DNA of 64,000 nucleotides, from assembly GCA_963664395.2 (NCBI GenBank), contig OY761159.2, positions 3,360,001 to 3,424,000 of the forward strand, given 5' to 3'. The notes beneath the pieces were generated by a model that had not been told where the DNA came from, ran no database searches, and worked only from the letters and a program-made list of their open reading frames with translations. Made by a program: the position numbers and the translations under genes. Below are positions 11,438-24,336 of this stretch, piece by piece. The first letter of the stretch is position 1. Each line of letters starts with the position of its first letter. The stretch comes from Candidatus Binatia bacterium (lineage in GTDB: Bacteria > Desulfobacterota > Binatia > Bin18).

Positions 11438-12430
11438 TTAAATATGAATCCGCTCGATCTCATCAAGGGATACCTCATCCTGCAAGCGGTTGTATAATTG
11501 CGTCGTGCGGGTCGATTCATGGCCGGCGATACGCGCCGCCGTCTCCAGCGTTCCCCCCGCGCGGAGATATTCGGTAATGCCTGTTCCCCGGAAGCTGTGG
11601 GCGCAGATCTCACCAGGCAAGCCCGCGCTCTTCGCGCGGCGCTTAATCATCTTCAAGGCGTCGGTCCGTTTGATCGGGCGGCTGCTGAGCTGGTCGAGCC
11701 CCCGTTGTGTGCCAGCAGAGGGAAACAAGGGGCCTTTCGGGTCGGCCGTCAGGCCGGCGCGCTCGATGTATTCATCCGTCCAGGCCTGCGCCATATGGTG
11801 AGCGGGAATGACCAGATACTTACCGCCCTTCTCGTGCAGCCGGAAGTAGGACCGCTTGCCCTGGGTGTAATAGTCGGCCACCCGCATCGCCAGCGCCGCG
11901 CTCACCCGCGCAAAGCCGTACACCATCAGGCCCATCAACGCGCGATCCCTCAGCCCTATGAGAGTTGAAGGGTCTATACTGTCGAGCAAGCCCCGCGCTT
12001 CTTCCGCCGTTAAAATGGGGGTCTTGCCCGTTTTGATGATCTGCTTCGGGCCGCGGACCGCGCCGGCCGGATTACTGCGCATGACCTGGCCCACTACGAG
12101 CCAGTCAAAGAGCTGCCGCAAGGCGGCCGGATTTTGCTTGACTGTGGACGGCGCATAAGCCCGCCCAAGCTGCTCGATGTAGCGGGCGACATGCAAGGGC
12201 TCGACCCGGGCCAAGGTGAGGGCCTGCGCCGCGCACCAGTCCGCGAAGCGGTAGGCCGCCGTGACGTAGGCCATCCGGGTATTGGCATTGCGGATGTTCG
12301 CCCCAAAGAACTCCCAAAACCGCTGCTGCCCCTGCCTGGTGTCCGCAAAGAGCTGCGGGGGGCGTCCACCCGCAATGCGGGCCGGAATCGGCTCACTCGC
12401 CGGGCGGCGTTCCGCTATTTGCATCTTCAT
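11438..12430 (-). CDS. Tyrosine recombinase/integrase
   Basis: Catalytic residues FARVS (R), HEKGGK (K), HSFR, AGH, TTQLY (Y); N-terminal NIRNANTRMAY SAM-like domain. Confidence 0.92.
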   Translation of the reverse strand: MKMQIAERRPASEPIPARIAGGRPPQLFADTRQGQQRFWEFFGANIRNANTRMAYVTAAYRFADWCAAQALTLARVEPLHVARYIEQLGRAYAPSTVKQNPAALRQLFDWLVVGQVMRSNPAGAVRGPKQIIKTGKTPILTAEEARGLLDSIDPSTLIGLRDRALMGLMVYGFARVSAALAMRVADYYTQGKRSYFRLHEKGGKYLVIPAHHMAQAWTDEYIERAGLTADPKGPLFPSAGTQRGLDQLSSRPIKRTDALKMIKRRAKSAGLPGEICAHSFRGTGITEYLRAGGTLETAARIAGHESTRTTQLYNRLQDEVSLDEIERIHI

Positions 12431-12451: not shown

Positions 12452-12475
12452 CAGTCATAACAACGTTTATGACTG
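12452..12475. other. dif/res-like tyrosine recombinase core site
   Basis: Perfect inverted repeat CAGTCATAA-CAACGT-TTATGACTG (9-6-9) directly upstream of the integrase start. Confidence 0.65.
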
Positions 12476-12553
12476 ACAGACAAGACGCCCCCACCCCCGC
12501 CGCGTTTTTCGAGCCCTATCTTTCTCCTGTCGTCGGCCAGCACCCGACCTCAT

Positions 12554-12582
12554 TTGACGCATATACGATCTGTATATATAAT
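12554..12582 (+). promoter_or_regulatory. sigma70 promoter of brnTA with overlapping operator palindrome, probably leaderless
   Basis: TTGACG-N17-TATAAT; ATATAC-N5-GTATAT between the boxes; GTG start 6 bp after the -10 box. Confidence 0.7.
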
Positions 12583-12588
12583 TTTGGG

Positions 12589-12858
12589 GTGCAATTGACC
12601 TGGCACGAAACGAAGCGCCGCACCAACCTGACCAGCCACGGCTTAGATTTCGGGGATGCCGAGGAGGTCTTTGCTGGTCCGACGTTCACCTTCGAGGACG
12701 ACCGATTGCACTATCCTGAACAGCGGTTTGTGACACTTGGCCTCCTGAGAGGGGTGTGTGTGTCGCTTGTGCATACCGAGACGCCGGCGCGTATTCATGT
12801 CATTTCCTTCCGAAAGGCAACCAGAAATGAACAGATCATCTTCTTCCAAAACGTCTAA
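12589..12858 (+). CDS. brnT: BrnT family toxin
   Basis: WHETKRRTNLTSHGLDF...EQRFVTLG...IHVISFRKAT; GTG start inferred from the promoter. Confidence 0.88.
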   Translation: MQLTWHETKRRTNLTSHGLDFGDAEEVFAGPTFTFEDDRLHYPEQRFVTLGLLRGVCVSLVHTETPARIHVISFRKATRNEQIIFFQNV

Positions 12859-13169: not shown

Positions 13170-14125
13170 GGTCTATCCCCGCGTGTGCGGGGGAACCGTT
13201 CGGGTTAGGGTGATGCTATGCCTGTACTGGGGTCTATCCCCGCGTGTGCGGGGGAACCTAACCTCCCCAACTCTTCACTATGTGTGACTAAGGTCTATCC
13301 CCGCGTGTACGGGGGAACCGCGGCCCAACGTTTGAAGTAAAGGTGAGGCTCAGGTCTATCCCCGCGTGTACGGGGGAACCTCCTGGCTCAGCGTCGGAGG
13401 CTGGCTAACTGTCGGTCTATCCCCGCGTGTACGGGGGAACCGAGTTGCAGCCCGCTGTACGGCTCTGGCCGCAGTTGGGTCTATCCCCGCGTGTACGGGG
13501 GAACCGACCAGATTGGCGATACGGCCCTGGCCGAGTTGGGTCTATCCCCGCGTGTACGGGGGAACCTGTTAACTTTCTTCGTGGGTGAACTGGATATTGG
13601 GTCTATCCCCGCGTGTACGGGGGAACCCAAGAGCGGGGGTAGGCGTGTTGATCGTGAGGCGGTCTATCCCCGCGTGTACGGGGGAACCGGCACCACGTCT
13701 CGCCATCGCTGGCCTGCCGAGTACGGTCTATCCCCGCGTGTACGGGGGAACCATCGCCAGAAGCTCCTCCATAGAGCAGGAGGCGGGTCTATCCCCGCGT
13801 GTACGGGGGAACCCGACCACCGTTGTTCCGCCACCACCGGCTATAGGGTCTATCCCCGCGTGTACGGGGGAACCCATGTCGGTTGCTCCCTTCGTATCGG
13901 TTAGGGGGGTCTATCCCCGCGTGTACGGGGGAACCGTGGCAAGCCGAACCGGGACAAGCCGACTGGGCGGTCTATCCCCGCGTGTACGGGGGAACCCTTC
14001 CCATATTGCCCATGCCGCCCCATAGGTGCGGTCTATCCCCGCGTGTACGGGGGAACCGCAGGGGCAGATCTTTACTCCTTTGCGCTTTCGTGGTTAGGGT
14101 CTATCCCCGCGTGTACGGGGGAACC
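13170..14125 (-). CRISPR. Type I-E CRISPR array, 16 repeats / 15 spacers
   Basis: 28-bp repeat GGTCTATCCCCGCGTGTACGGGGGAACC (reverse complement GGTTCCCCCGTACACGCGGGGATAGACC). Twelve spacers of 33 bp, two of 36 bp, one of 40 bp. The two leader-distal repeats carry GTGTGCGG. Confidence 0.98.
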
Positions 14126-14206: not shown

Positions 14207-14513
14207 CTATTTGTCCTGAGTTTGGCGGGTTCGCCGCGACAAGATGAGGCCCTCTTGGTCCACTAACTCGACCGGTGGTGACCCCAGGACTCGAACGCCT
14301 TGTCCCCCCGGCTCACGTGGGTCCTGCCATGTCATGACAATAGATTGGCCGCCCAACTCCAGGAACCATTCCTCTATCACCGTCCATACCCGCTCTCTGA
14401 CGCTACGAGACAGCCTCGGGGCAGTGTACACCCCAGGGGGCAATCTCAATCATGCAAGAGGCCAAAAACCCACGGGTGCGTGGGGCAACGTCACGTGTCA
14501 CTACTACTGTCAT
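14207..14513 (-). CDS. cas2: Type I-E Cas2, with a +1 homopolymer frameshift near 14436-14440
   Basis: MTVVVTRDVAPRTRGFLASCMIEIAP continues as GVYTAPRLSRSVRERVW after one extra C; the 307-bp span is 3n+1. Confidence 0.88.
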
Positions 14514-15372
14514 CGTCGTCCATCAATTTTATTATGCGATCAATCATTTTCGATATGATCTTCTTCTCTCTGAATCGGCGTCCCGCCAATCGCCGGACAT
14601 GCCGTTCGAGCGGAATATGTCCATTTTTGTGATGCTGGCTCACTGCCTCAAATGCGACCGGGATGGTCACTTCAGTCCGGTACAGGTCCGCAATATCCAG
14701 ACAAAAGGCAATAGACGCATCCTCGTGAATAAAGCCCAGAGGAGGCAGCGTTCCGGTTGCGGCCACGGCAACAATAGCCGCGGCTTCGATTGCCGTGGCC
14801 GCGTGGTTAATGGCCTGGTTCGGAGCGTCGGCAATGTCCGGGTTTTGCCGGTCATAGTGGCGGCCATGCCACGCAATGCCATACTTCTGTGCCAGCAGGC
14901 CGTAGGCCGTTTTCATCCGCGCTCCCTCGATACCGCGCAGGATGGATATGTCCTGTTCGGGCAGCACCTCACCCAAACGCCAGGCGTACATGCGCCGGGC
15001 TAGGCGAAGCCGGGAGCGCATGTCGTTCCAGAGTTTTGCCTGACGGCGCGCTCTTCTCGAATCGTTCGGTCCAAAGGGCTGGGCGCTATACATCCGCACG
15101 CCGTCTTCCCCAACCGCGACAAGGCCGGTCCCGTGGCGGGCGAGAAGACGGAACACGTCATGGCTCACGGTTGAGCCCGGCCCCAGCAGGATGAACGAGA
15201 TATTCTGAAACGGAATGGCGTAATCGCCGGCAGCCATATCCGGCGACCCGGCGGTCCGAAAATGCAACGTGCCGTCCTCCACGCTGAGATTCCCACGCGC
15301 CAACCACAGCAGCCCATGACGGTCGGCGTGCGGAATCCGCGCGGCCTCAAGCCCTAATCTTCCTTTCAACAT
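14491..15372 (-). CDS. cas1: Type I-E Cas1
   Basis: LLGPGSTVSH, VGEDGVRMY, LRGIEGARMK, PPLGFIH and LDIADLYR motifs. Confidence 0.97.
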   Translation of the reverse strand: MLKGRLGLEAARIPHADRHGLLWLARGNLSVEDGTLHFRTAGSPDMAAGDYAIPFQNISFILLGPGSTVSHDVFRLLARHGTGLVAVGEDGVRMYSAQPFGPNDSRRARRQAKLWNDMRSRLRLARRMYAWRLGEVLPEQDISILRGIEGARMKTAYGLLAQKYGIAWHGRHYDRQNPDIADAPNQAINHAATAIEAAAIVAVAATGTLPPLGFIHEDASIAFCLDIADLYRTEVTIPVAFEAVSQHHKNGHIPLERHVRRLAGRRFREKKIISKMIDRIIKLMDDDDSSSDT

Positions 15373-15392: not shown

Positions 15393-16178
15393 TTATCCGT
15401 CTTGCATGGCGGCCAGGCGTTCGGTCGGCCCAACGCAGGCCGGCCGCAGCAGCAACATCCCGTAGCCGTAGGCGCGGTGCCGTCCAATACCCTGGGTCAG
15501 CAAGGCGGTGAAGGCAGCGGCATCAGTAATGGTCAGGACGCCCCGCATGACCGCGTCCGGCCCTTCGCTGTGACGGGCACGGAGCTTACGCACGGCGCGG
15601 GTACGCTGGAATGAGCGTAACTCCGCCGACTCCAACCGCGCGCCGCCTCTGCGGGCAAACTGATCGGCCAACCACTCACGATACACTTCTTCACGACTGC
15701 ACGGCATCCCGTTCTTCGGATACTGCATTGCCTTGAGTTGGAAGGCGTCCCATTCCCTACCGGGGTGGCCTTCCGCGTTGCGACTGCGGCGCACGATGGG
15801 GCGAATCCGTGTCTCAAAGCCGAGCTGCTTGTCTGACCGCCATTCAGTCGGCATTGGTTTGCTGTTGATCGTATGACCGGGGATGATTTTTGCCTGCAAG
15901 GGATCGGCGTATATGCCAGCCGCGTCACGCAAAGAGTCGGCCTCGGCGTATCCGTATCCGTACCATACGCCACATACCGCGCCGCGCGGCACAATCAGAC
16001 GAAAGGGTTTGGGTGCCAGGTCGCCGAAGCATTCGGTGAGCAGACAGTGCATGGCGTGGTCCGCGTCCTGGAGGCGCTTACCGCCCATCCAGCGCTGAAA
16101 ATCGCGTACCCTGACATCGGCGCGGATCAGTTGAAGCGGAGCCGCAGGCGAATCGGTTGATGTGGCAGTATCCATCAT
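15393..16178 (-). CDS. cas6e: Type I-E Cas6e (CasE/Cse3)
   Basis: C-terminal GIGRHRAYGYGML glycine loop; start moved to MMDTATST, just after the cas5 stop. Confidence 0.93.
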   Translation of the reverse strand: MMDTATSTDSPAAPLQLIRADVRVRDFQRWMGGKRLQDADHAMHCLLTECFGDLAPKPFRLIVPRGAVCGVWYGYGYAEADSLRDAAGIYADPLQAKIIPGHTINSKPMPTEWRSDKQLGFETRIRPIVRRSRNAEGHPGREWDAFQLKAMQYPKNGMPCSREEVYREWLADQFARRGGARLESAELRSFQRTRAVRKLRARHSEGPDAVMRGVLTITDAAAFTALLTQGIGRHRAYGYGMLLLRPACVGPTERLAAMQDG

Positions 16179-16179
16179 T

Positions 16180-16926
16180 TTACTCGTCCTTTGCCGTGGA
16201 AAACCGGTCGTGTTCGATAGCGCCTTCACACACCAGTCGCCCGCCGCCGTGCAGCCCGGACATCCAGTTGCGCTGGTCGGTGAGCATATAGCTGCGACTG
16301 GGAGTGATCTCCGCTCTGCCTTCGCCGTCCGGCCAGAGCGCTCGTATGGCGACCGCAGGCGGTATATCAGTAGCCAGAGGCGTGGCCAGCAGTGCTGCCA
16401 GGGCCGTGTCGCCCTGACTGAAACCGCCGAACAGGGTGCCCGACGGCAGGCAGGGCTTGCGTCCGATGAACAGCGGTCGGGCCGGTTCCTGCAAGGCACC
16501 GGCCAGGTCGTCCAGCGTCGGGGGCTCATCAGCCGGCTCCAGACGCAGTGCAACGGTGACGCGCATATCCGCGAAGTAGTCGCGATAGCGCAGATGGGGG
16601 GCGTCATATGTGGCCGCTCCACCGGCGCGGCCTTCGGGGACTCCCCGCGTGGTCCAGCCTTGGTCTTTTTTACTCAACTGTGCCGTCTGAAAATCGGTGA
16701 GCCTCACACCGGTCGCCGGCTCGCGGTCAATACGTGCGGCGAATACCAGGCGGTCTTGTAGGCGTTGATGCAGGTCCCGTTCGATCCGTCGCCAACCCAG
16801 AGCGTTGGCCAACAGCCCGGTCAGCATGGAGACGGACGGGAACCAGCGGATGACGCCGTAATTGTCAATGGTTTCCCCGCCAAAGGCCATGAGTGGGGAT
16901 TCGAGAGACAGAATCAGATGGCGCAT
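16180..16926 (-). CDS. cas5e: Type I-E Cas5 (CasD)
   Basis: MRHLILSLESPLMAFGG, SMLTGLLANALGW, LTDFQT, RYRDYFAD and PLFIGRKPCLP motifs. Confidence 0.95.
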   Translation of the reverse strand: MRHLILSLESPLMAFGGETIDNYGVIRWFPSVSMLTGLLANALGWRRIERDLHQRLQDRLVFAARIDREPATGVRLTDFQTAQLSKKDQGWTTRGVPEGRAGGAATYDAPHLRYRDYFADMRVTVALRLEPADEPPTLDDLAGALQEPARPLFIGRKPCLPSGTLFGGFSQGDTALAALLATPLATDIPPAVAIRALWPDGEGRAEITPSRSYMLTDQRNWMSGLHGGGRLVCEGAIEHDRFSTAKDE

Positions 16927-16928
16927 CT

Positions 16929-18147
16929 CTATGCCTCGCCGCTCAGCACTGCCTGTGACGCCCATTCTGCCAAATCGTCCAGACCGAGGCGTTCGGCGTT
17001 GGGAATGTCGCAGTCCTCAACCGACAGCACCCGTCGGGCTTCCTTTGCTCCATAGGCGACGTCCAGTTTACTCAGGTATTGGGATAGGGCGTTGGTGGCA
17101 TCGGATACCTGCGCCTTGGTCGGGTTGCGAAACGTATTGGCCAGGCTGCGCGGCTGACGTATTCCAGCCTCAATGAGCATCAGGTCGGCGCAGGAATAAG
17201 GCGCGGTGGAACCGAGTTTGGCACCGGGCGATACGGTGGCAATCAGATGAACGAGGTGGTCAACCACCTTACCGGCGAGGTCTTTATCCGCGCTCAGGTT
17301 GGACACCAGCCCCGGTACGTCCACCACGACATAGCCGTAGAACAGCCCCGCAGTCAGTTCCATGTCTCCGATGTGTGCGGCGCCGGCGTCTTCGTCAGCC
17401 TGCTGCAAGTCGTCTACCACGGAAAAGTAATCGCTCTCGCTTTCTTCCTGATGCACGGTGAAGGCGTGGGCGACATGGATAGCGGCGTCAATATTGGCTG
17501 CGGGGTCGGAGGTGACCATCCGTCCGAACAGCGCCCCGACAAGCCCACCGGGCAGACTCGTGCTTTTGCGGAATGCCTCGAAATTCGGGATTTCATCACC
17601 GAACATCTCAGTAGCGGCATTTCTGGCATCTCTCCGCGGTCGGTCTTGGCTTTTCCAGTGGCGGTTTTAATTTGTTCGTCAGTCACCAACAAGCCAGTAG
17701 CCACTTTCGTGCGGCAATTTCGTCCTCGGAGTGTTTCTCACAGATCGCTTTGGCTTTCTCACGCATAGATATTCCACTTCGGGCAGACCCAACAGCAAGG
17801 GTTGGCGACCCTTTTCCGTGTCACCTGTCTTGCCGTACACTCCTATGTTGAAAGCCTTTTCAACTGCTTCAAGCACATCGCCAGAAGTCTCTCCGGCATT
17901 GCGCAATGGCTGCATGACCGTGCGGTCAACAACATTTCGAGAGCGGAACGCATCCGGCCCAATGTGAGTGATGAGAAAATTCGTCCTCTGCCATGCGCCA
18001 GTGCCGCTTGAGGCACTGCGACGAGATACGGGTCCGTACCGCGTCACCGAAGGGCAGGCGCTTGGCCAGGCCGCTGTCGTCGCGGTTCAGCAGCGCGGCG
18101 GGATAGGAATGAAGGGTGTGGATTTGCAGAAAACGTGGTGTGGTCAT
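16929..18147 (-). pseudogene. cas7e: Type I-E Cas7 (CasC/Cse4), split by at least three frame changes
   Basis: Fragments FLQIHTLHSYPAALLNRDDSGLAK/RISSQCLKRHWR (17926-18147), RQPLLLGLPEVEYL (17679-18047) and ALFGRMVTSD/VAHAFTVH/DYFSVVDDL/PGAKLGSTAPY (16929-17606). Confidence 0.9.
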
Positions 18148-18203
18148 GGTGAAAACTCCTTGGTGCTTTTGTCTTCTTGTCGTCCCTATGGGCGAAATTG
18201 TCT

Positions 18204-19154
18204 TTACTCGTCGGTCGAGGAAGAACGGTGCTGCTCCGCCCGGTAATACTCACGGGCAATTTTTATTCGAGCCTCATCAGCCCGCTCTTCGTTGTATCCG
18301 TCGTTGAGGATGAACCAAGCCATTTCCCGCCAGTTGAAGGCGCAGCCTTTGCTCGCCAGCATCCGAAACAGCCGTGCCAGCAGACGATGGAGCGTTGGTC
18401 CTCTGGCGGCAAGTAACGTCGCTAGTCGGTCCTCGCTGTAAAAGGCCGTTCCCGGTTGGTCTTGATTGCCCTCATATAATACCCGCCCAACCGGCCTTCT
18501 TGGATTATGAGCCAAGCCAGCAGTATGGGACATCAGGGCTATGCCGTGTGTGATAAGCCCCCATTTTTTAATATCCGGGTTTCTGGACATTCCGCGTTGG
18601 CTCATGAGCTTCCAGAACACAGCGCCGCCAGGATTGCTCGGGTCCATGCGTCGGAGGCTGGCTTTTTCTCCTGTTGTCATTTCCTTGGATTCAATCGACT
18701 CGATGGTGTTCGCCATAACAACACCAAAGTTGGCAGGTATCGGACTGCTGGGCAGTCCAGGCAAGAGTTTGGTCACGCTGTTGTGTCCAGCAGTGCCATT
18801 TTCGATAATGTCGTACAGTTCGCGTCGGTGATCTGAGTTATCACCACGCCAAACCTTTGTAGTGATACCCATCTGTTTGAACGCTTCCAGCCAGTCTTCC
18901 TGTCCTTCTCCGAATGGGCTGTCAGCCTCGCGCTTTAACTCTGCTACCAGCATTTCAAACAGACCTGACTCTGGGTGCTGCCGAAACATAACGAGGTCGG
19001 GAAATCCCCTGCCGCGCACTATGCGAAAACCATCAACATGGAACGGTCTCCATCCATGATGAATAGCTTCTTCATGCACCTCTTTGTTAAAGAACCACTC
19101 CCTATCCGTAACAGCGGAATCTGGAGCTTTGTTGACTGGTTGTTGCTCTGACAT
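18204..19154 (-). CDS. cas11: VRR-NUC nuclease-Cas11 (CasB/Cse2) fusion protein
   Basis: Occupies the cas11 slot between cas8e and cas7. The C-terminal ~170 aa are Cse2-like (GEKASLRRM, FWKL, YSEDRLATLL, FNWREMA, IAREYYR). The N-terminal ~120 aa carry E19...GFPD53L...AE72LK74...Q85xxWL...VWR. Confidence 0.85.
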   Translation of the reverse strand: MSEQQPVNKAPDSAVTDREWFFNKEVHEEAIHHGWRPFHVDGFRIVRGRGFPDLVMFRQHPESGLFEMLVAELKREADSPFGEGQEDWLEAFKQMGITTKVWRGDNSDHRRELYDIIENGTAGHNSVTKLLPGLPSSPIPANFGVVMANTIESIESKEMTTGEKASLRRMDPSNPGGAVFWKLMSQRGMSRNPDIKKWGLITHGIALMSHTAGLAHNPRRPVGRVLYEGNQDQPGTAFYSEDRLATLLAARGPTLHRLLARLFRMLASKGCAFNWREMAWFILNDGYNEERADEARIKIAREYYRAEQHRSSSTDE

Positions 19155-19156
19155 AC

Positions 19157-20746
19157 TTAACTCTCCTTCTGTCCTTCATCGAAAAGAAACGGGAGCCCCT
19201 TCGCGCCGCATATCCGACCCTCAAACAGTCCCTCAGCGTTGACACGGGCGCGGTAGCGGTGAATGGCCGGGCAGGGCAGGGAATCCTCGGCAGCGTGCAA
19301 AGTCCGACGAGCGAGGTCAACTATGCCGTCTTTGCCGTTCATTAACCACTCGTTGCGAACACGCTTCCGCTCTGCCTCATCGTCAACCTCGAACTCATCC
19401 TGTAGGTCGTTAAAAAAGCGGGCGTCTACGATTTCGTCTAACTTGTTCAGCCAGGGATGGGCTAGGGCACGATGTTCAGGACTCACCTTATCGCCGTCGC
19501 CTCGGGCGGCGAACACCTGGATGGCGTGGCTGAGAATGCGCTGAACGGTGCCGACCTGTTCAATGCGCTGTTGAGCAATGTCGCCGAGTTCGGCAGTACC
19601 TCCCACTCTTCCGAAAACCTGTATTGTTTTGGAGCGTAGTGGGATGACTCGTTCGTGATAGCCTTCGGTCATGCCTTGTTTATTCGTATTGTTCTTTGTA
19701 CTTCGCGCTACTAGTTGCATTGAGGTGTTTGAATCACGGTCTTCTGAAGACCTTGATAACAATGGAGGCCACTCCCAATCAGCGGACGTGAGATAGGTCG
19801 TTATGCGTTTATAGCTAAAACCTGCCGGTCCGATGTTCAGGGCTTTGCCTTCTTTTTTGTTGATCGGAGTCCAAGGGTCTCCAGTCCGTCCGTTAATATT
19901 TTTTGCCTCAATACGACTGGATTCAGAGTTTGCCCTGACGCCGTACAGATTTCCCTTTTCGTTTGTTTGAAGCCGGACGCGGCGGCAGATTTCTATGTAG
20001 AAGGGGTCCAGTTGGTCAAGTCGTATTCCTTCTTTCTTGTTTCCGTCCCACGGTATGGCCCACAATAAATCCGCCCCACCATCGGTCATCGGATAATCGG
20101 CCAAAATTGTCTGGCGATGTTTCTGCAAGACTTTAATATCTCTGAGAACGTGAGCGCCAGTGCGTCCGGATGGCGCGAGGCTAAAAGCGGGCCGCCCGGA
20201 ATATGCGCTTCTGATTCTCGAAATCGGATAATTGCCTCTACCATTCTGGAGTGACATCGTTTGCAGCGTAATCAGCGCGAAGAGCCATTCATCAGGAACG
20301 GCCTGCGTCGCCACAGCGGCTTTCAGGTCGTGATTCTTGGAGGTGACGAGCATGTCCAGTTCGTCGGGTGTGGCGACAGTGCTCTTGTAATCCTTCTCGC
20401 GCTCTGCGGACGAGGCCGGGGGCTGCATGAAGGCGGGTTTGGTGATGTCGTCAACCACAAGCTGCCAGGGCTCGTCGTTGGGATAGTCAGGTGTCAGCGC
20501 GCGAATAATACGCAGCCACTCCGTGGCATCTTTAGGTGGCGTCAGTCCAGCCCGTCCCGGTGCATCGCCATTGACACCCAACTGAACCAGAAAGGCGTGC
20601 CAGGCGTGGCGCTGATGGGGCCGGAGCGCAGGAAAGGCGTCTATTTTGTCATCTATCAGTGCGGCGTAGGTTTCGGGCAGGGAGGCGGGATATGTACTTC
20701 CGGCCGCGTTAATCCGAATCAAGGGGTCAGTGAGAATGTTGAGCAT
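19157..20746 (-). CDS. cas8e: Type I-E Cas8e (CasA/Cse1)
   Basis: NILTDPLI, LRPHQRHAWHAFLVQL, PAFMQP, DMLVTSKNHDLK, EICRRVRL, TGDPWTP and TEGYHER motifs. Confidence 0.92.
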   Translation of the reverse strand: MLNILTDPLIRINAAGSTYPASLPETYAALIDDKIDAFPALRPHQRHAWHAFLVQLGVNGDAPGRAGLTPPKDATEWLRIIRALTPDYPNDEPWQLVVDDITKPAFMQPPASSAEREKDYKSTVATPDELDMLVTSKNHDLKAAVATQAVPDEWLFALITLQTMSLQNGRGNYPISRIRSAYSGRPAFSLAPSGRTGAHVLRDIKVLQKHRQTILADYPMTDGGADLLWAIPWDGNKKEGIRLDQLDPFYIEICRRVRLQTNEKGNLYGVRANSESSRIEAKNINGRTGDPWTPINKKEGKALNIGPAGFSYKRITTYLTSADWEWPPLLSRSSEDRDSNTSMQLVARSTKNNTNKQGMTEGYHERVIPLRSKTIQVFGRVGGTAELGDIAQQRIEQVGTVQRILSHAIQVFAARGDGDKVSPEHRALAHPWLNKLDEIVDARFFNDLQDEFEVDDEAERKRVRNEWLMNGKDGIVDLARRTLHAAEDSLPCPAIHRYRARVNAEGLFEGRICGAKGLPFLFDEGQKES

Positions 20747-21520: not shown

Positions 21521-24199
21521 CTATACCCGGCGCAGTCCCAGCCGGTCGTACCGGAAACGGGACTCGCCCATACGGAATGTAAAACCGCTGTCCTCCAGGT
21601 CGGGAACGACCGGCTTGTCGTCGGTCGCCTCGTCGGACAGACGGGGGGCCAGATGATGGGGGATGGTCAACTGCCCAATGGCTTCTGCCCCGAACGGGCT
21701 TGGCGCTGGTGGGTCCAACTCCACTTCAATGCCCTCGTCACCCAGCCGAGTGCGTATGCGTTCTTCGTCACTACCGAATACAACCTCACGGTTGTCATCG
21801 CCAAAAAAGGATTTGTCGTAACGAACGAGGGCACTCCGCGCGGTCAGGGCTCCGGCCAGGGTTGCCCCGGTCATACGATTGGCGTGGATTTGCCAGGCGT
21901 CGCCCAACTCGTCGGTTATGGCTTTCAGGGCGTCGGGGTGGGTCGTTCGCTCCACCAGTTCCCGGTTCATTGCCGGGATACGCCATTCCGGGTGGTGGAG
22001 AATCAGCCGGCGCGTCGCCTCAAGCACACGCAGATCCTCGTAGACGAACCCGTGCGGTCCCAGCCCGTTCCGACCGGGACCTTTGGATAATAAGGGTGAG
22101 AGGTCATCCCTCTCCGGCATCAGCACGATACACGCGGGCGTCGCGTAGCCTTCGGGCCGGTCAGCCCGTTGGTGGCGGTGCAGCCGACCGATGCGCTGGA
22201 GCAGTACGTCCATCGGGCACAAGTCGGTGATTAACAGGTCCGCGTCTATGTCCAGCGATTGCTCCAAGGTCTGCGTCCCCACAATAATGCATCCGCCGGA
22301 CGGACGGTCTTTACCGATCTGATCTTCCACCGCTTTGTCCAGCACGAGTCGGTCTTCACGGGCGAACCTGCCGTGGTGGAGGGTGAGAATGCCGCGACAG
22401 GCGTAGAGCAGGTGGCTTTCGTCCTGGGCAATCATTGCTTCCACCGTCTGTTGGGTGTCAATGGCGTATTGCACGGTGTTCCGTACCACCAGAACCTTGG
22501 CTCCGGCACGGGTCGCGCGCAGAGCGCGTTGGGCTACCTGGGTGAAATCTCCCATGTCCGAGATGGCCTCAACCCGAACCGTTTTCTCCCTCCCGTTTTC
22601 GTTCACGGCGATGGTGGTTTTGCCGGTACGCGTCGAGACCGCAGGGTAGGGGGTCTCGATGGCGTCGTTCAACGACGGTGGAGTATTGGTAGCAGAGGAA
22701 GATTTTTCGGACAGCCAGCGAGAGCGTGCCGCAGAGCCGAGCGTGGCAGACATCAGGAGGGCGTAGCCGCCAGTCCCGATATGGACACGTAGTAAGGCTT
22801 CGAGAATGACGCGCATATAGGGGTCGGAGGCGTGCACCTCGTCCACTACCAGAAGATTGCGCGACAGGCAGGCGGCGCGCATATGGGCGTGCTTGACCTG
22901 GAGGGCGGCCAGCATGGCTTGGTCAACCGTACCGACGGCGATTTGGGCTGCCAGGTAGCGCTTGGCGCTCTCGGCTGCCCAGCGGCGTTTTTCGGTGAGG
23001 ATGTCGGGATGATCGTCCCACCACACCTCGTATTTCGGCAGATGCTTTCCTGTGGCGGCTCCGGCACGGACATAGCCGGGGACTGCCAGCACGGGCTCCG
23101 GGCCGACTCCTTCGGGGAACAGCTTGTCAATGAAGCGTGTGATGCGTCTGTGCATCTGGCTGGCTGCCGCACGGGTAGGCAAGGCAAAATACAGTCCGTC
23201 TACCCGTCCGTCTTGATACATATGGGCAAAGCGCCAGAGCGCGGCCTCGGTTTTCCCAGAGCCGGTTTCGGACTCGATGATAACCAGGCGCTCGTCCAGC
23301 GGAACCGCTATCGCCGAGTGCTGAATGGGGTTGGGCGTTGCGTTGGGGATGCCGAATAGGGCGTCGAAATTCGGCAGGGCGGGCAGTACGTGAAAAGCGC
23401 TCCGCTGGCTTTCGATATTCAACCCGATTTCCAAGAGCGCATTGTGGGCGTTGTGCCGTGCGGTCTGCATGTAGTCGTCACGAGGCTCGTCGCAGAATGG
23501 GAAGTGGGTTTCGTCAGAACCAATCCAGTCGGCCAGCATGCACAGGCCCAGAAACATATGCTGAAAAGCGGGAGTGGACGGCAGAGGAAGCGCACGAAGT
23601 GTCCAGGCTGCAGGAAACCAGTCTCGCACCAGCCGCCCGATGCGCTCTACACCACGCCGGGGGTGCAGTGCACCGAAGGAGCGCCAGATGGCGGGATTCT
23701 TGGACCGACTATCCTGCATGTTAAGTGGCCGACCGTGGTGAGACAGCGCAGCCACGAACAAGGCGCAGACCGTCTCTCCGCCGCAATCGTCCCAGGTCAG
23801 AAAATCCTCCCACCAGCCCAGCGTACTGAAGAACCAGTCCGCGGTTTCGGTGTCATCGTAGTTCAGAACCGGTGTCAGGTCGGCGATATGTCCGGCAGGG
23901 CGTGGGTGGCGCGTATCTGTGGGAAAGTCGGATTCCTGCCATATCCGTGTCTGAAAGCCGATGTTGACTTTGCCTATGTCGTGCATAGCTGCCAAGACTG
24001 CCAGCCGTGCTGCAATCACAGGGTCAATGTCGTCCAGCTTGCCAGCCCGTGCTAGTCGTTGTCGGATAGTCGGCTGTGCCAGCAGAGCCTCAAAGCAGGC
24101 CCCCACATCAGCCATATGGTGTTCCAGCAGATGGATACGTTGTGGGTTTTCGCGGTCGGATTTTGCCCAGAAGACCTGGGTATATGCTGCGGGTAGCAT
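21521..24199 (-). CDS. cas3: Cas3 HD nuclease-helicase
   Basis: HD domain (WAKS, HMADV, HDIGK, HHG, ADWIGS) plus SF2 motifs ETGSGKTE, DEVH, SAT, HHGRF, QRIGRLHRH; start at MLPAAY after a GAGG RBS. Confidence 0.96.
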   Translation of the reverse strand: MLPAAYTQVFWAKSDRENPQRIHLLEHHMADVGACFEALLAQPTIRQRLARAGKLDDIDPVIAARLAVLAAMHDIGKVNIGFQTRIWQESDFPTDTRHPRPAGHIADLTPVLNYDDTETADWFFSTLGWWEDFLTWDDCGGETVCALFVAALSHHGRPLNMQDSRSKNPAIWRSFGALHPRRGVERIGRLVRDWFPAAWTLRALPLPSTPAFQHMFLGLCMLADWIGSDETHFPFCDEPRDDYMQTARHNAHNALLEIGLNIESQRSAFHVLPALPNFDALFGIPNATPNPIQHSAIAVPLDERLVIIESETGSGKTEAALWRFAHMYQDGRVDGLYFALPTRAAASQMHRRITRFIDKLFPEGVGPEPVLAVPGYVRAGAATGKHLPKYEVWWDDHPDILTEKRRWAAESAKRYLAAQIAVGTVDQAMLAALQVKHAHMRAACLSRNLLVVDEVHASDPYMRVILEALLRVHIGTGGYALLMSATLGSAARSRWLSEKSSSATNTPPSLNDAIETPYPAVSTRTGKTTIAVNENGREKTVRVEAISDMGDFTQVAQRALRATRAGAKVLVVRNTVQYAIDTQQTVEAMIAQDESHLLYACRGILTLHHGRFAREDRLVLDKAVEDQIGKDRPSGGCIIVGTQTLEQSLDIDADLLITDLCPMDVLLQRIGRLHRHQRADRPEGYATPACIVLMPERDDLSPLLSKGPGRNGLGPHGFVYEDLRVLEATRRLILHHPEWRIPAMNRELVERTTHPDALKAITDELGDAWQIHANRMTGATLAGALTARSALVRYDKSFFGDDNREVVFGSDEERIRTRLGDEGIEVELDPPAPSPFGAEAIGQLTIPHHLAPRLSDEATDDKPVVPDLEDSGFTFRMGESRFRYDRLGLRRV

Positions 24200-24336
24200 G
24201 TCCTCTCTCGATAAAAGCGCCGACTGCTGGAAACACGCAGGTATAGCAATCGACATTGAGGGGTCAAGCTCGCCTGCCCCGCCGCTCAGCTCTTCCTGCT
24301 CAAATACGAATGCGTTGACGCAGAGCCGTGAGGAGA

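Follow-up and report, generated by a model that had tools for sequence, protein, structure and literature searches.

Why should a type I-E CRISPR system that has kept an intact Cas3 also carry a second nuclease domain, fused to the Cas11 subunit of its Cascade complex? The question is raised by a gene in a stretch of 64,000 nucleotides (nt) from a Candidatus Binatia bacterium (contig OY761159.2 of assembly GCA_963664395.2, positions 3,360,001 to 3,424,000), which is referred to here as the window and from the first letter of which all coordinates are counted. The gene (protein P0001; 18204..19154, minus strand) encodes 316 amino acids plus a stop codon and joins a predicted VRR-NUC domain of the PD-(D/E)xK type to a Cse2/Cas11 body. 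The analysis described below points to a nuclease that is intrinsic to Cascade, and on balance a pair of VRR-NUC domains carried by the complex probably cuts the DNA of the R-loop, alongside Cas3 where the locus is full, as in the window, and alone in related loci that have no cas3.

The architecture itself is already in print. A VRR-NUC-Cas11 fusion was reported by Altae-Tran et al. in 2023 (PMC10910872) and was named variant I-E3 by Makarova et al. in 2025 (PMC12669027), and because the fusion is present in these two papers the claim of an earlier, sequence-only reading of the window, that no such system had been described, does not hold. The window locus is almost certainly a member of I-E3, as it has the same PD-(D/E)xK VRR-NUC domain on Cas11, in an I-E locus with Cas3 kept, and shows no architectural difference from the published variant. 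According to PMC12669027, some I-E3 members retain a Cas3 whose HD domain appears to be active, and the role of the nuclease is given as "to be determined" because Cas3 is still present in those members. No functional study of VRR-NUC-Cas11 or of I-E3 was found in the literature searched. What is added here is a set of minimal loci without cas3, a pair of contigs (L006 and L036) that differ in both cas3 and the form of cas11, tandem-domain forms with one degenerate copy, and a homodimer model of the domain. Neither the cas3-less loci nor the tandem forms nor the model of the dimer appear in the available passages of PMC10910872 and PMC12669027, the supplementary data of which may list such loci.

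The N-terminal domain of the fusion protein resembles VRR-NUC nucleases

The fusion gene starts with an ATG at 19154, 2 nt past the TAA of the 529-residue cas8e open reading frame (ORF), and a GAAGGAG sequence lies ~ 9 nt 5' of this start. The sequence-only reading had placed a 316-residue gene between cas8e and cas7, 2 bp after the cas8e stop and behind a ribosome-binding site, and this is what was found, on the minus strand, which that reading had left unstated. The encoded protein can be divided into three parts, all on the minus strand. The VRR-NUC (PD-(D/E)xK) domain covers about residues 14-121 (18792..19115), as placed by Pfam, tblastn, hhalign and the conserved columns; a Pro/Ser-rich linker, LPGLPSSPIPA, is apparent from the sequence at about residues 122-144 (18723..18791) and falls in a variable, gappy part of the alignment of 41 relatives (alignment A1); and the Cse2/Cas11 body makes up about residues 145-316 (18207..18722). 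The body was recognised by Pfam CRISPR_Cse2 (PF09485) on residues 164-304 (E 2.3e-10, 41.5 bits against a cut-off of 24.6) and by NCBIfam casB_cse2 (TIGR02548) on residues 159-306 (52.8 bits against a cut-off of 28.5), in agreement with the Cse2-like C-terminal body that had been proposed.

The candidate catalytic residues E19 (in REWFFNKEV), D53 (GFPDL), E72 and K74 (VAELK) and Q85 (GQEDW), like the linker, are present in the protein exactly as first quoted, together with P52 and W88 of the VRR-NUC motif set (PD and Q..W). In the 41 aligned relatives, which are 28-95% identical to the window protein, E19, G50-F51-P52-D53, A71-E72-L73-K74, Q85 and W102 were conserved at 90% or more. In an alignment of 18 N-terminal domains, taken from the window and related loci (alignment A3), VRGRGFPD, AELK, Q85, W88 and A91 were invariant, and E19 lay outside the invariant or nearly invariant columns. 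The predicted active-site residues are under strong conservation, and the domain is apparently active as a DNA-cutting nuclease.

The family of the domain was explored by several profile methods. Pfam VRR_NUC (PF08774) matched residues 47-104 of the window protein with an E-value of 1.6e-4 and 22.2 bits, under the cut-off of 23.8 bits; a six-frame search of the genome with the same model gave 23.4 bits, or 24.2 bits counting in-frame neighbours, the latter being reported above the cut-off, and the fusion gene was the sole VRR_NUC match in that genome. The model matched 24 of the 41 relatives at E ≤ 0.01 (best E 4.3e-5), and Cse2 matched 38 of them. A tblastn search of phage genomes with the domain returned 22 records, all from Arthrobacter or Rothia phages, of which the best was gp21 of Arthrobacter phage Kovu, annotated as 'VRR-Nuc domain protein' (E 7e-4, residues 14-113); three of the four phage proteins taken passed the Pfam VRR_NUC cut-off. 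Alignment by hhalign of the N-terminal domain profile (A3) with six stand-alone VRR-NUC proteins (A5), the phage members of which had been picked partly by weak similarity to the query, gave a probability of 99.2% and an E-value of 2.4e-19 over 100 columns, and the catalytic residues of the fusion fell in the same columns as those of the stand-alone proteins. With the three bacterial VRR-NUC members alone the probability was 42%, in the motif region. Profile searches of the PDB, using either the whole protein or the N-terminal domain, reached no VRR-NUC chain; the matches returned (EncC, RNase H and ketol-acid reductoisomerase) were at chance level and were set aside.

Assignment of the N-terminal domain as a VRR-NUC-type PD-(D/E)xK nuclease, as first read from the sequence, is supported by the hhalign match, the Pfam match below the cut-off and the conserved catalytic residues. 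The domain shares a length of ~ 100 amino acids and the same motifs (a helix Glu, G-x-PD, E-x-K and Q-x-x-W) with phage and bacterial VRR-NUC proteins of the stand-alone kind and with the VRR-NUC domain of FAN1, and differs from the stand-alone proteins in being tethered to a CRISPR subunit.

The fusion is genuine and widespread

It could be that a frameshift or a misassembly had fused a separate VRR-NUC gene to cse2, especially as the same assembly has four indels in its cas7 gene and another in cas2. Logan contigs from four public runs of four different studies (X1, X2, X3 and X5) were aligned to positions 16900-19200. Record 7 of X1 spans 17872-19200 with its sole gap in cas7, leaving the fusion gene free of gaps; X2 and X3 both span 18136-19200 with 0 gaps; and X5 spans 18497-19160, including the domain junction, also with 0 gaps. 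The contigs of all four runs thus cross the linker, and no stop or indel was found between the two domains in any of them, establishing that the domains are truly joined, as the sequence-only reading had held. Full-length fusions were, in addition, present in a further 19 genomes, which span several phyla, and made up 97 of the 120 homologues listed. The independent contigs and the homologous fusions refute an artefact, and the likelihood left to it is negligible.

At least 259 homologous proteins were found at E ≤ 1e-3 by a word-indexed search. Of the 120 listed, the 97 full-length proteins are 53-95% identical to the query and align with 90% or more of its length, while the other 23 (249-373 amino acids) have less than 90% coverage; the eight of these that were read start at an internal Met of the domain, and the short homologues are probably the result of start-codon calls or truncated ORFs. 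An exhaustive search gave 677 matches among representatives at 50% identity. In 130 such representatives with a full Cse2 body, the N-terminal domain was detected in 14 by phmmer and in a further 4 by motif, 92 were plain and 15 were classed as Cas8e-Cas11 fusions, so that the domain is present in at least 18 clusters at 50% identity. The latter 15 representatives (P0136, P0155, P0156, P0159, P0162 and others) are 450-800 amino acids long with a related Cse2 body at the C terminus, and presumably represent Cas8e-Cas11 fusions in related I-E systems. A tree of the Cse2 bodies of the 130 representatives, in which 63 of 127 forks were open and some rows labelled plain were fragments, showed 12 changes of VRR state on the best tree, with starred branches forcing far fewer, and was set aside as an argument on single or multiple origins.

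Twenty loci were taken from species-representative genomes of several phyla, 19 of them with the full fusion, and carried the labels Binatia, Dehalococcoidia/Chloroflexota, Entotheonella and, in one case, Thermodesulfobacteriota. In a sample of the class, relatives of the I-E Cas11 were present in 14 of 401 genomes, all belonging to one family, and within the genus of the window a match was found in 9 of 27 other genomes, six of these matches extending into the VRR-NUC part of the query. Only five short proteins matched the N-terminal domain; they end within or just past the domain and may be cut ORFs, and no clear stand-alone ancestor was found among these short matches.

Cas3 and the adaptation genes in related loci

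The existence of other full-length I-E fusions, on which the sequence-only reading had in part depended, was borne out by 19 related loci, and these differ in their cas3 genes: the gene is adjacent in 13, lies 13.6 kb away in one and is absent nearby in five. All 13 related fusion loci with an adjacent cas3 keep the HD, Walker A and DEVH motifs, two apparent stops falling upstream of the start. The single distant case (L013/L037; G151:C1:194031-210349) has ~ 13.6 kb of inserted DNA between cas3 and cas8e and is otherwise a complete I-E3 locus. With the window included, cas3 adjoins the other genes, its HD and helicase motifs intact, in 14 of 20 loci and lies 13.6 kb upstream in one more, and the nuclease is therefore not simply a replacement for Cas3.

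The five loci without an adjacent cas3 (L006, L008, L009, L014 and L022) were read for 3-8 kb upstream of cas8e, where the genes found were unrelated or of housekeeping type and encode VWA proteins, DUF192, LigA, an amidohydrolase and a membrane protein. Apart from a single frameshift in L022, which affects cas7, the five genes cas8e, VRR-cas11, cas7, cas5 and cas6 are whole ORFs, and L006, L008, L014 and L022 keep the PD/ExK motifs intact (alignment A3, which leaves out L009). The array directly follows cas6 in L008, L009, L014 and L022, without cas1-cas2 in the locus, and the L006 contig ends inside cas6. On a tree of Cas8e, Cas7 and Cas5 the cas3-less state corresponds to three changes. The arrays of L008, L009 and L022 have only trailing spacers in common, indicating that spacers have been gained since these loci diverged. 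Mixed or degenerate repeat variants are found in the arrays of the five-gene I-E3 loci L008, L009, L014 and L022 (and L006).

The remainder of each genome was also considered. No Cas3 above the TIGR01587 cut-off was found in the genome of L022, a chromosome of 3.3 Mb, or in that of L009, and the sole cas3 in the L014 genome is of another type and is located 1.2 Mb off. The genomes of L006 and L008, on the other hand, each contain a second, canonical I-E locus with cas3 and a plain cas11, together with cas1-2 on that of L008, whose contig reaches that far.

A direct comparison of the two states is provided by L006:5375-13559 and the reverse of L036, which come from the same metagenome-assembled genome (MAG) and align with 95% identity in cas8e, 94% in cas7-cas5 and 94% in an upstream antitoxin gene. 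Two segments could not be aligned. In the first, cas3 in L036 stands against an ORF for a membrane protein of 491 amino acids in L006, and in the second, a plain cas11 (~ 190 amino acids) in L036 stands against VRR-cas11 in L006. The pair links gain of a nuclease-bearing cas11 with absence of cas3, in one case only.

As possible functions the sequence-only reading had put forward backup against anti-Cas3 proteins, R-loop nicking and prespacer generation. The related loci bear on a possible role in adaptation, in which the nuclease would trim or generate prespacers for Cas1-Cas2, in the manner of Cas4, and be tied to Cascade in primed acquisition. The PD-(D/E)xK fold class is common to Cas4 and VRR-NUC, type I-E is not known to have Cas4, and the window locus has both cas1-cas2 and an array of uniform repeats. 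However, L008, L009, L014 and L022 keep the fusion without cas1-cas2 in the locus, with the motifs intact in the three that were read (not L009); moreover, no Cas1 was found in the L009 genome, and the cas1 genes found in the L014 and L022 genomes were all non-I-E. Since the nuclease is kept in loci that lack cas1-cas2, generation of prespacers becomes less likely, and we regard it as quite improbable.

A predicted VRR-NUC dimer and tandem-domain relatives

Solved dimers of VRR-NUC exist, and the stand-alone enzymes of phages and bacteria are homodimeric. A homodimer model of the window domain (A3, two copies) reached 0.59, compared with 0.16 for the best of three controls, a mark attained by 20 of 30 proteins solved as one-chain pairs and, among those whose structures are of a single chain, by 1 of 23. 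Agreement in contacts among runs was at least 81%, and the predicted local distance difference test (pLDDT) value of the partner was at least 71. The modelled interface is symmetric, comprising residues 36, 38-39, 48, 51, 55, 57, 66, 68, 87-88, 90-92 and 94-97, and takes in the invariant H39, G48, F51, W88 and A91. The model supports pairing of VRR-NUC domains without demonstrating it, and the working unit of the domain is probably a dimer.

Seven relatives of ~ 400-460 amino acids (P0008-P0012, P0026 and P0098) have two tandem VRR-NUC domains ahead of the Cse2 body. In the N-terminal copy PDL, ELK and Q..W are invariant, and the Glu of helix 1 is variable and often absent. In the Cas11-proximal copy the motif D is replaced by R or H and the motif E by S, A or T, with the helix-1 Glu kept. 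No locus of the tandem form was found in two metagenome scans or in the 401-genome class sample. The suggestion made from the window sequence, that two Cas11 copies could bring a VRR-NUC pair together, gains support from both the homodimer model and these tandem forms.

Retention of a copy that has lost the motif D and E means that a structural role for the fold exists, and one interpretation is that the domain is a non-catalytic module in general, binding branched or single-stranded DNA and so stabilising the R-loop or recruiting Cas3. Against this, the single-domain forms show little or no variation at D53, E72 and K74, and the other tandem copy has PDL, ELK and Q..W invariant in all seven tandem proteins. 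A purely non-catalytic function is considered very unlikely.

A proposed Cascade-borne nuclease

Taken with the L006/L036 pair and the cas3-less loci, the tandem-domain relatives and the homodimer model point to a Cascade-intrinsic nuclease, and the reading that we favour, by a narrow measure of confidence, is that a VRR-NUC pair on Cascade cuts R-loop DNA. The core of the canonical I-E Cascade holds two Cas11 copies (PMC11794572), and so two linker-borne domains could pair. The two Cas11 copies along the belly of Cascade would allow the tethered VRR-NUC domains to come together, through linkers of about 25 residues, and to form a unit with two active sites. Once the CRISPR RNA (crRNA) had opened an R-loop, the dimer would cut the Cascade-bound DNA, at the displaced strand or at the branch point. 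Where the locus is full, as in the window, this cut would be made alongside nicking and shredding by Cas3, and in the cas3-less relatives VRR-NUC would perhaps be the sole interference nuclease.

A nuclease at the Cas11 position has a working precedent in the Cas5-HNH Cascade (I-E2), in which HNH is located where a second Cas11 would normally be and crRNA-matched double-stranded DNA is cut without Cas3, first on the target strand and then on the non-target one (PMC11794572). The HNH-Cascades I-E2 (Cas5-HNH) and I-F4 (Cas8f-HNH) resemble the window system in having a nuclease built into a Cascade subunit. They differ from it in fold, HNH as opposed to PD-(D/E)xK, and in carrier, which is Cas5 or Cas8 in those variants and Cas11 here; furthermore, cas3 is typically absent from the HNH variants whereas it is kept in 15 of the 20 I-E3 loci here, and HNH-Cascades have one nuclease copy per complex whereas two are expected in this case.

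Collateral cleavage upon target activation has been described for HNH-Cascades (PMC10910872). It could be that target binding similarly frees or activates the VRR-NUC pair for non-specific cutting, not at the R-loop, as a collateral or abortive-infection nuclease, and the long flexible linker could give the domains reach past the R-loop. Stand-alone VRR-NUC enzymes, however, are structure-specific and not indiscriminate, and collateral cutting is considered unlikely.

A bolder form of the proposal, which is put forward only tentatively, is that the I-E3 Cascade is a self-contained RNA-guided cutter, in which the Cas11-borne VRR-NUC dimer cleaves the R-loop without Cas3 and which, in full loci, provides a second route that would survive anti-CRISPRs that block Cas3. 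Such a cutter would explain the loss of cas3 and cas1-2 in at least two or three I-E3 lineages in which the five Cascade genes and the nuclease motifs remain intact. Tandem forms in which one copy is dead would be accounted for as well, as there would still be two live sites per complex.

A number of points weigh against cutting by a Cascade-borne VRR-NUC pair. Intact cas3 genes are found next to the fusion in most of the loci, as described above, and in two of the five cas3-less cases the second canonical I-E locus could supply Cas3 in trans. The L006 and L036 contigs may stem from two co-binned strains, and most of the relatives' genomes are MAGs. The result of the dimer modelling may reflect memory in the model of solved VRR-NUC dimers, or likeness to them. 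With regard to the domain itself, the Pfam score of the window protein lies under the family cut-off, no VRR-NUC chain was reached in the PDB by profile search, and the hhalign target set included phage proteins chosen partly for their similarity to the query. Finally, both cas7 and cas2 of the window are frameshifted as assembled.

The surrounding CRISPR locus

The genes of the window locus are ordered cas3-cas8e-cas11-cas7-cas5-cas6-cas1-cas2, followed by the array, all on the minus strand. The cas3 gene (21521..24256) is intact and encodes a protein of 911 amino acids with HD nuclease and superfamily 2 (SF2) helicase domains, as indicated by Pfam (Cas3_HD, E 1.8e-30; Cas3-like_C_2, E 7.7e-29), by NCBIfam (TIGR01587, 181.6 bits against a cut-off of 102.45) and by matches to the solved I-E Cas3 chains of Thermobifida fusca and others (E 5e-46). 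It keeps the HD motifs, Walker A and DEVH, and the description of this Cas3 as intact in the sequence-only reading was correct. The divergent large subunit, Cas8e/Cse1 (19157..20746; 529 amino acids), was matched by TIGR02547 (casA_cse1) with 42 bits and an E-value of 5.7e-11, under the cut-off of 70.05 bits, and had no Pfam match; its length and position fit Cas8e, and its counterparts at this position in 20 related loci show 51-82% identity to it.

Downstream of the fusion gene, cas7/casC (16929..18147) is broken as assembled and was matched by TIGR01869 in two pieces (204.6 and 76.3 bits). It is followed by cas5e/casD (16180..16965; 261 amino acids; TIGR01868, 180.2 bits against a cut-off of 68.95) and by cas6e/casE (15393..16136; TIGR01907, 59 bits against a cut-off of 45.2; PF08798, E 3e-27), the start of which is approximate and was set by comparison with related loci. 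The cas1e gene (14491..15372) encodes 293 amino acids (TIGR03638, 291.7 bits against a cut-off of 215.6), and cas2 (14207..14513) is found in two frames, with PF09707 matching an 80-residue piece (E 1.6e-12). The array (13170..14125), read from the minus strand, has 16 uniform repeats of 28 nt with a period of 61 nt and spacers of 33 nt. The gene order, the 28-nt repeat and the 33-nt spacers are the same as in the canonical I-E systems of Escherichia coli and T. fusca, from which the window system differs in the extra N-terminal ~ 145 amino acids of its Cas11 and in its divergent Cas8e. Just past the distal end of the array come a gene for a tyrosine integrase (11438-12430, minus strand) and one for a toxin of the BrnT family (12469-12858, plus strand), and the CRISPR locus may be at the edge of a mobile island.

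To be read through from its ATG at 18147, cas7 requires frame changes of +1 near 17974, +2 near 17765, -1 near 17708 and +2 near 17635, all four frameshifting indels falling within about 340 nt, and the gene is also shorter in frame, by 27 nt and by 3 nt, than in L003 and L004, its closest relatives. At three of the four indel places the gene is unbroken in contigs from all four public runs, and near 17974 it is unbroken in those from three; as an example, one X1 contig is the same as the window over 153 nt save for one gap. The middle of cas7 is the most variable part of the gene across the relatives, with large deletions there in L005. In cas2, the N-terminal ~ 30 amino acids are in one frame and the remaining 80 in another, with one frameshift near 14430-14450, which is outside the region covered by the public-run contigs (16900-19200) and is probably one more assembly indel. 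The indels in cas7 and cas2 look like assembly errors, or changes private to this genome, and not like decay of the system.

Implications

The I-E3 loci offer ready-made comparisons bearing on the role of the domain, as they occur with and without cas3, with and without the domain on cas11, and with single or tandem domains. Were a Cas11-borne VRR-NUC pair to cut alone, I-E3 would represent a third route to a built-in nuclease in type I systems, after HNH on Cas5 and HNH on Cas8, and one that relies on another fold and on a subunit that occurs twice in the complex. In that case, the five-gene loci without cas3 would be natural compact candidates for programmable cutting.

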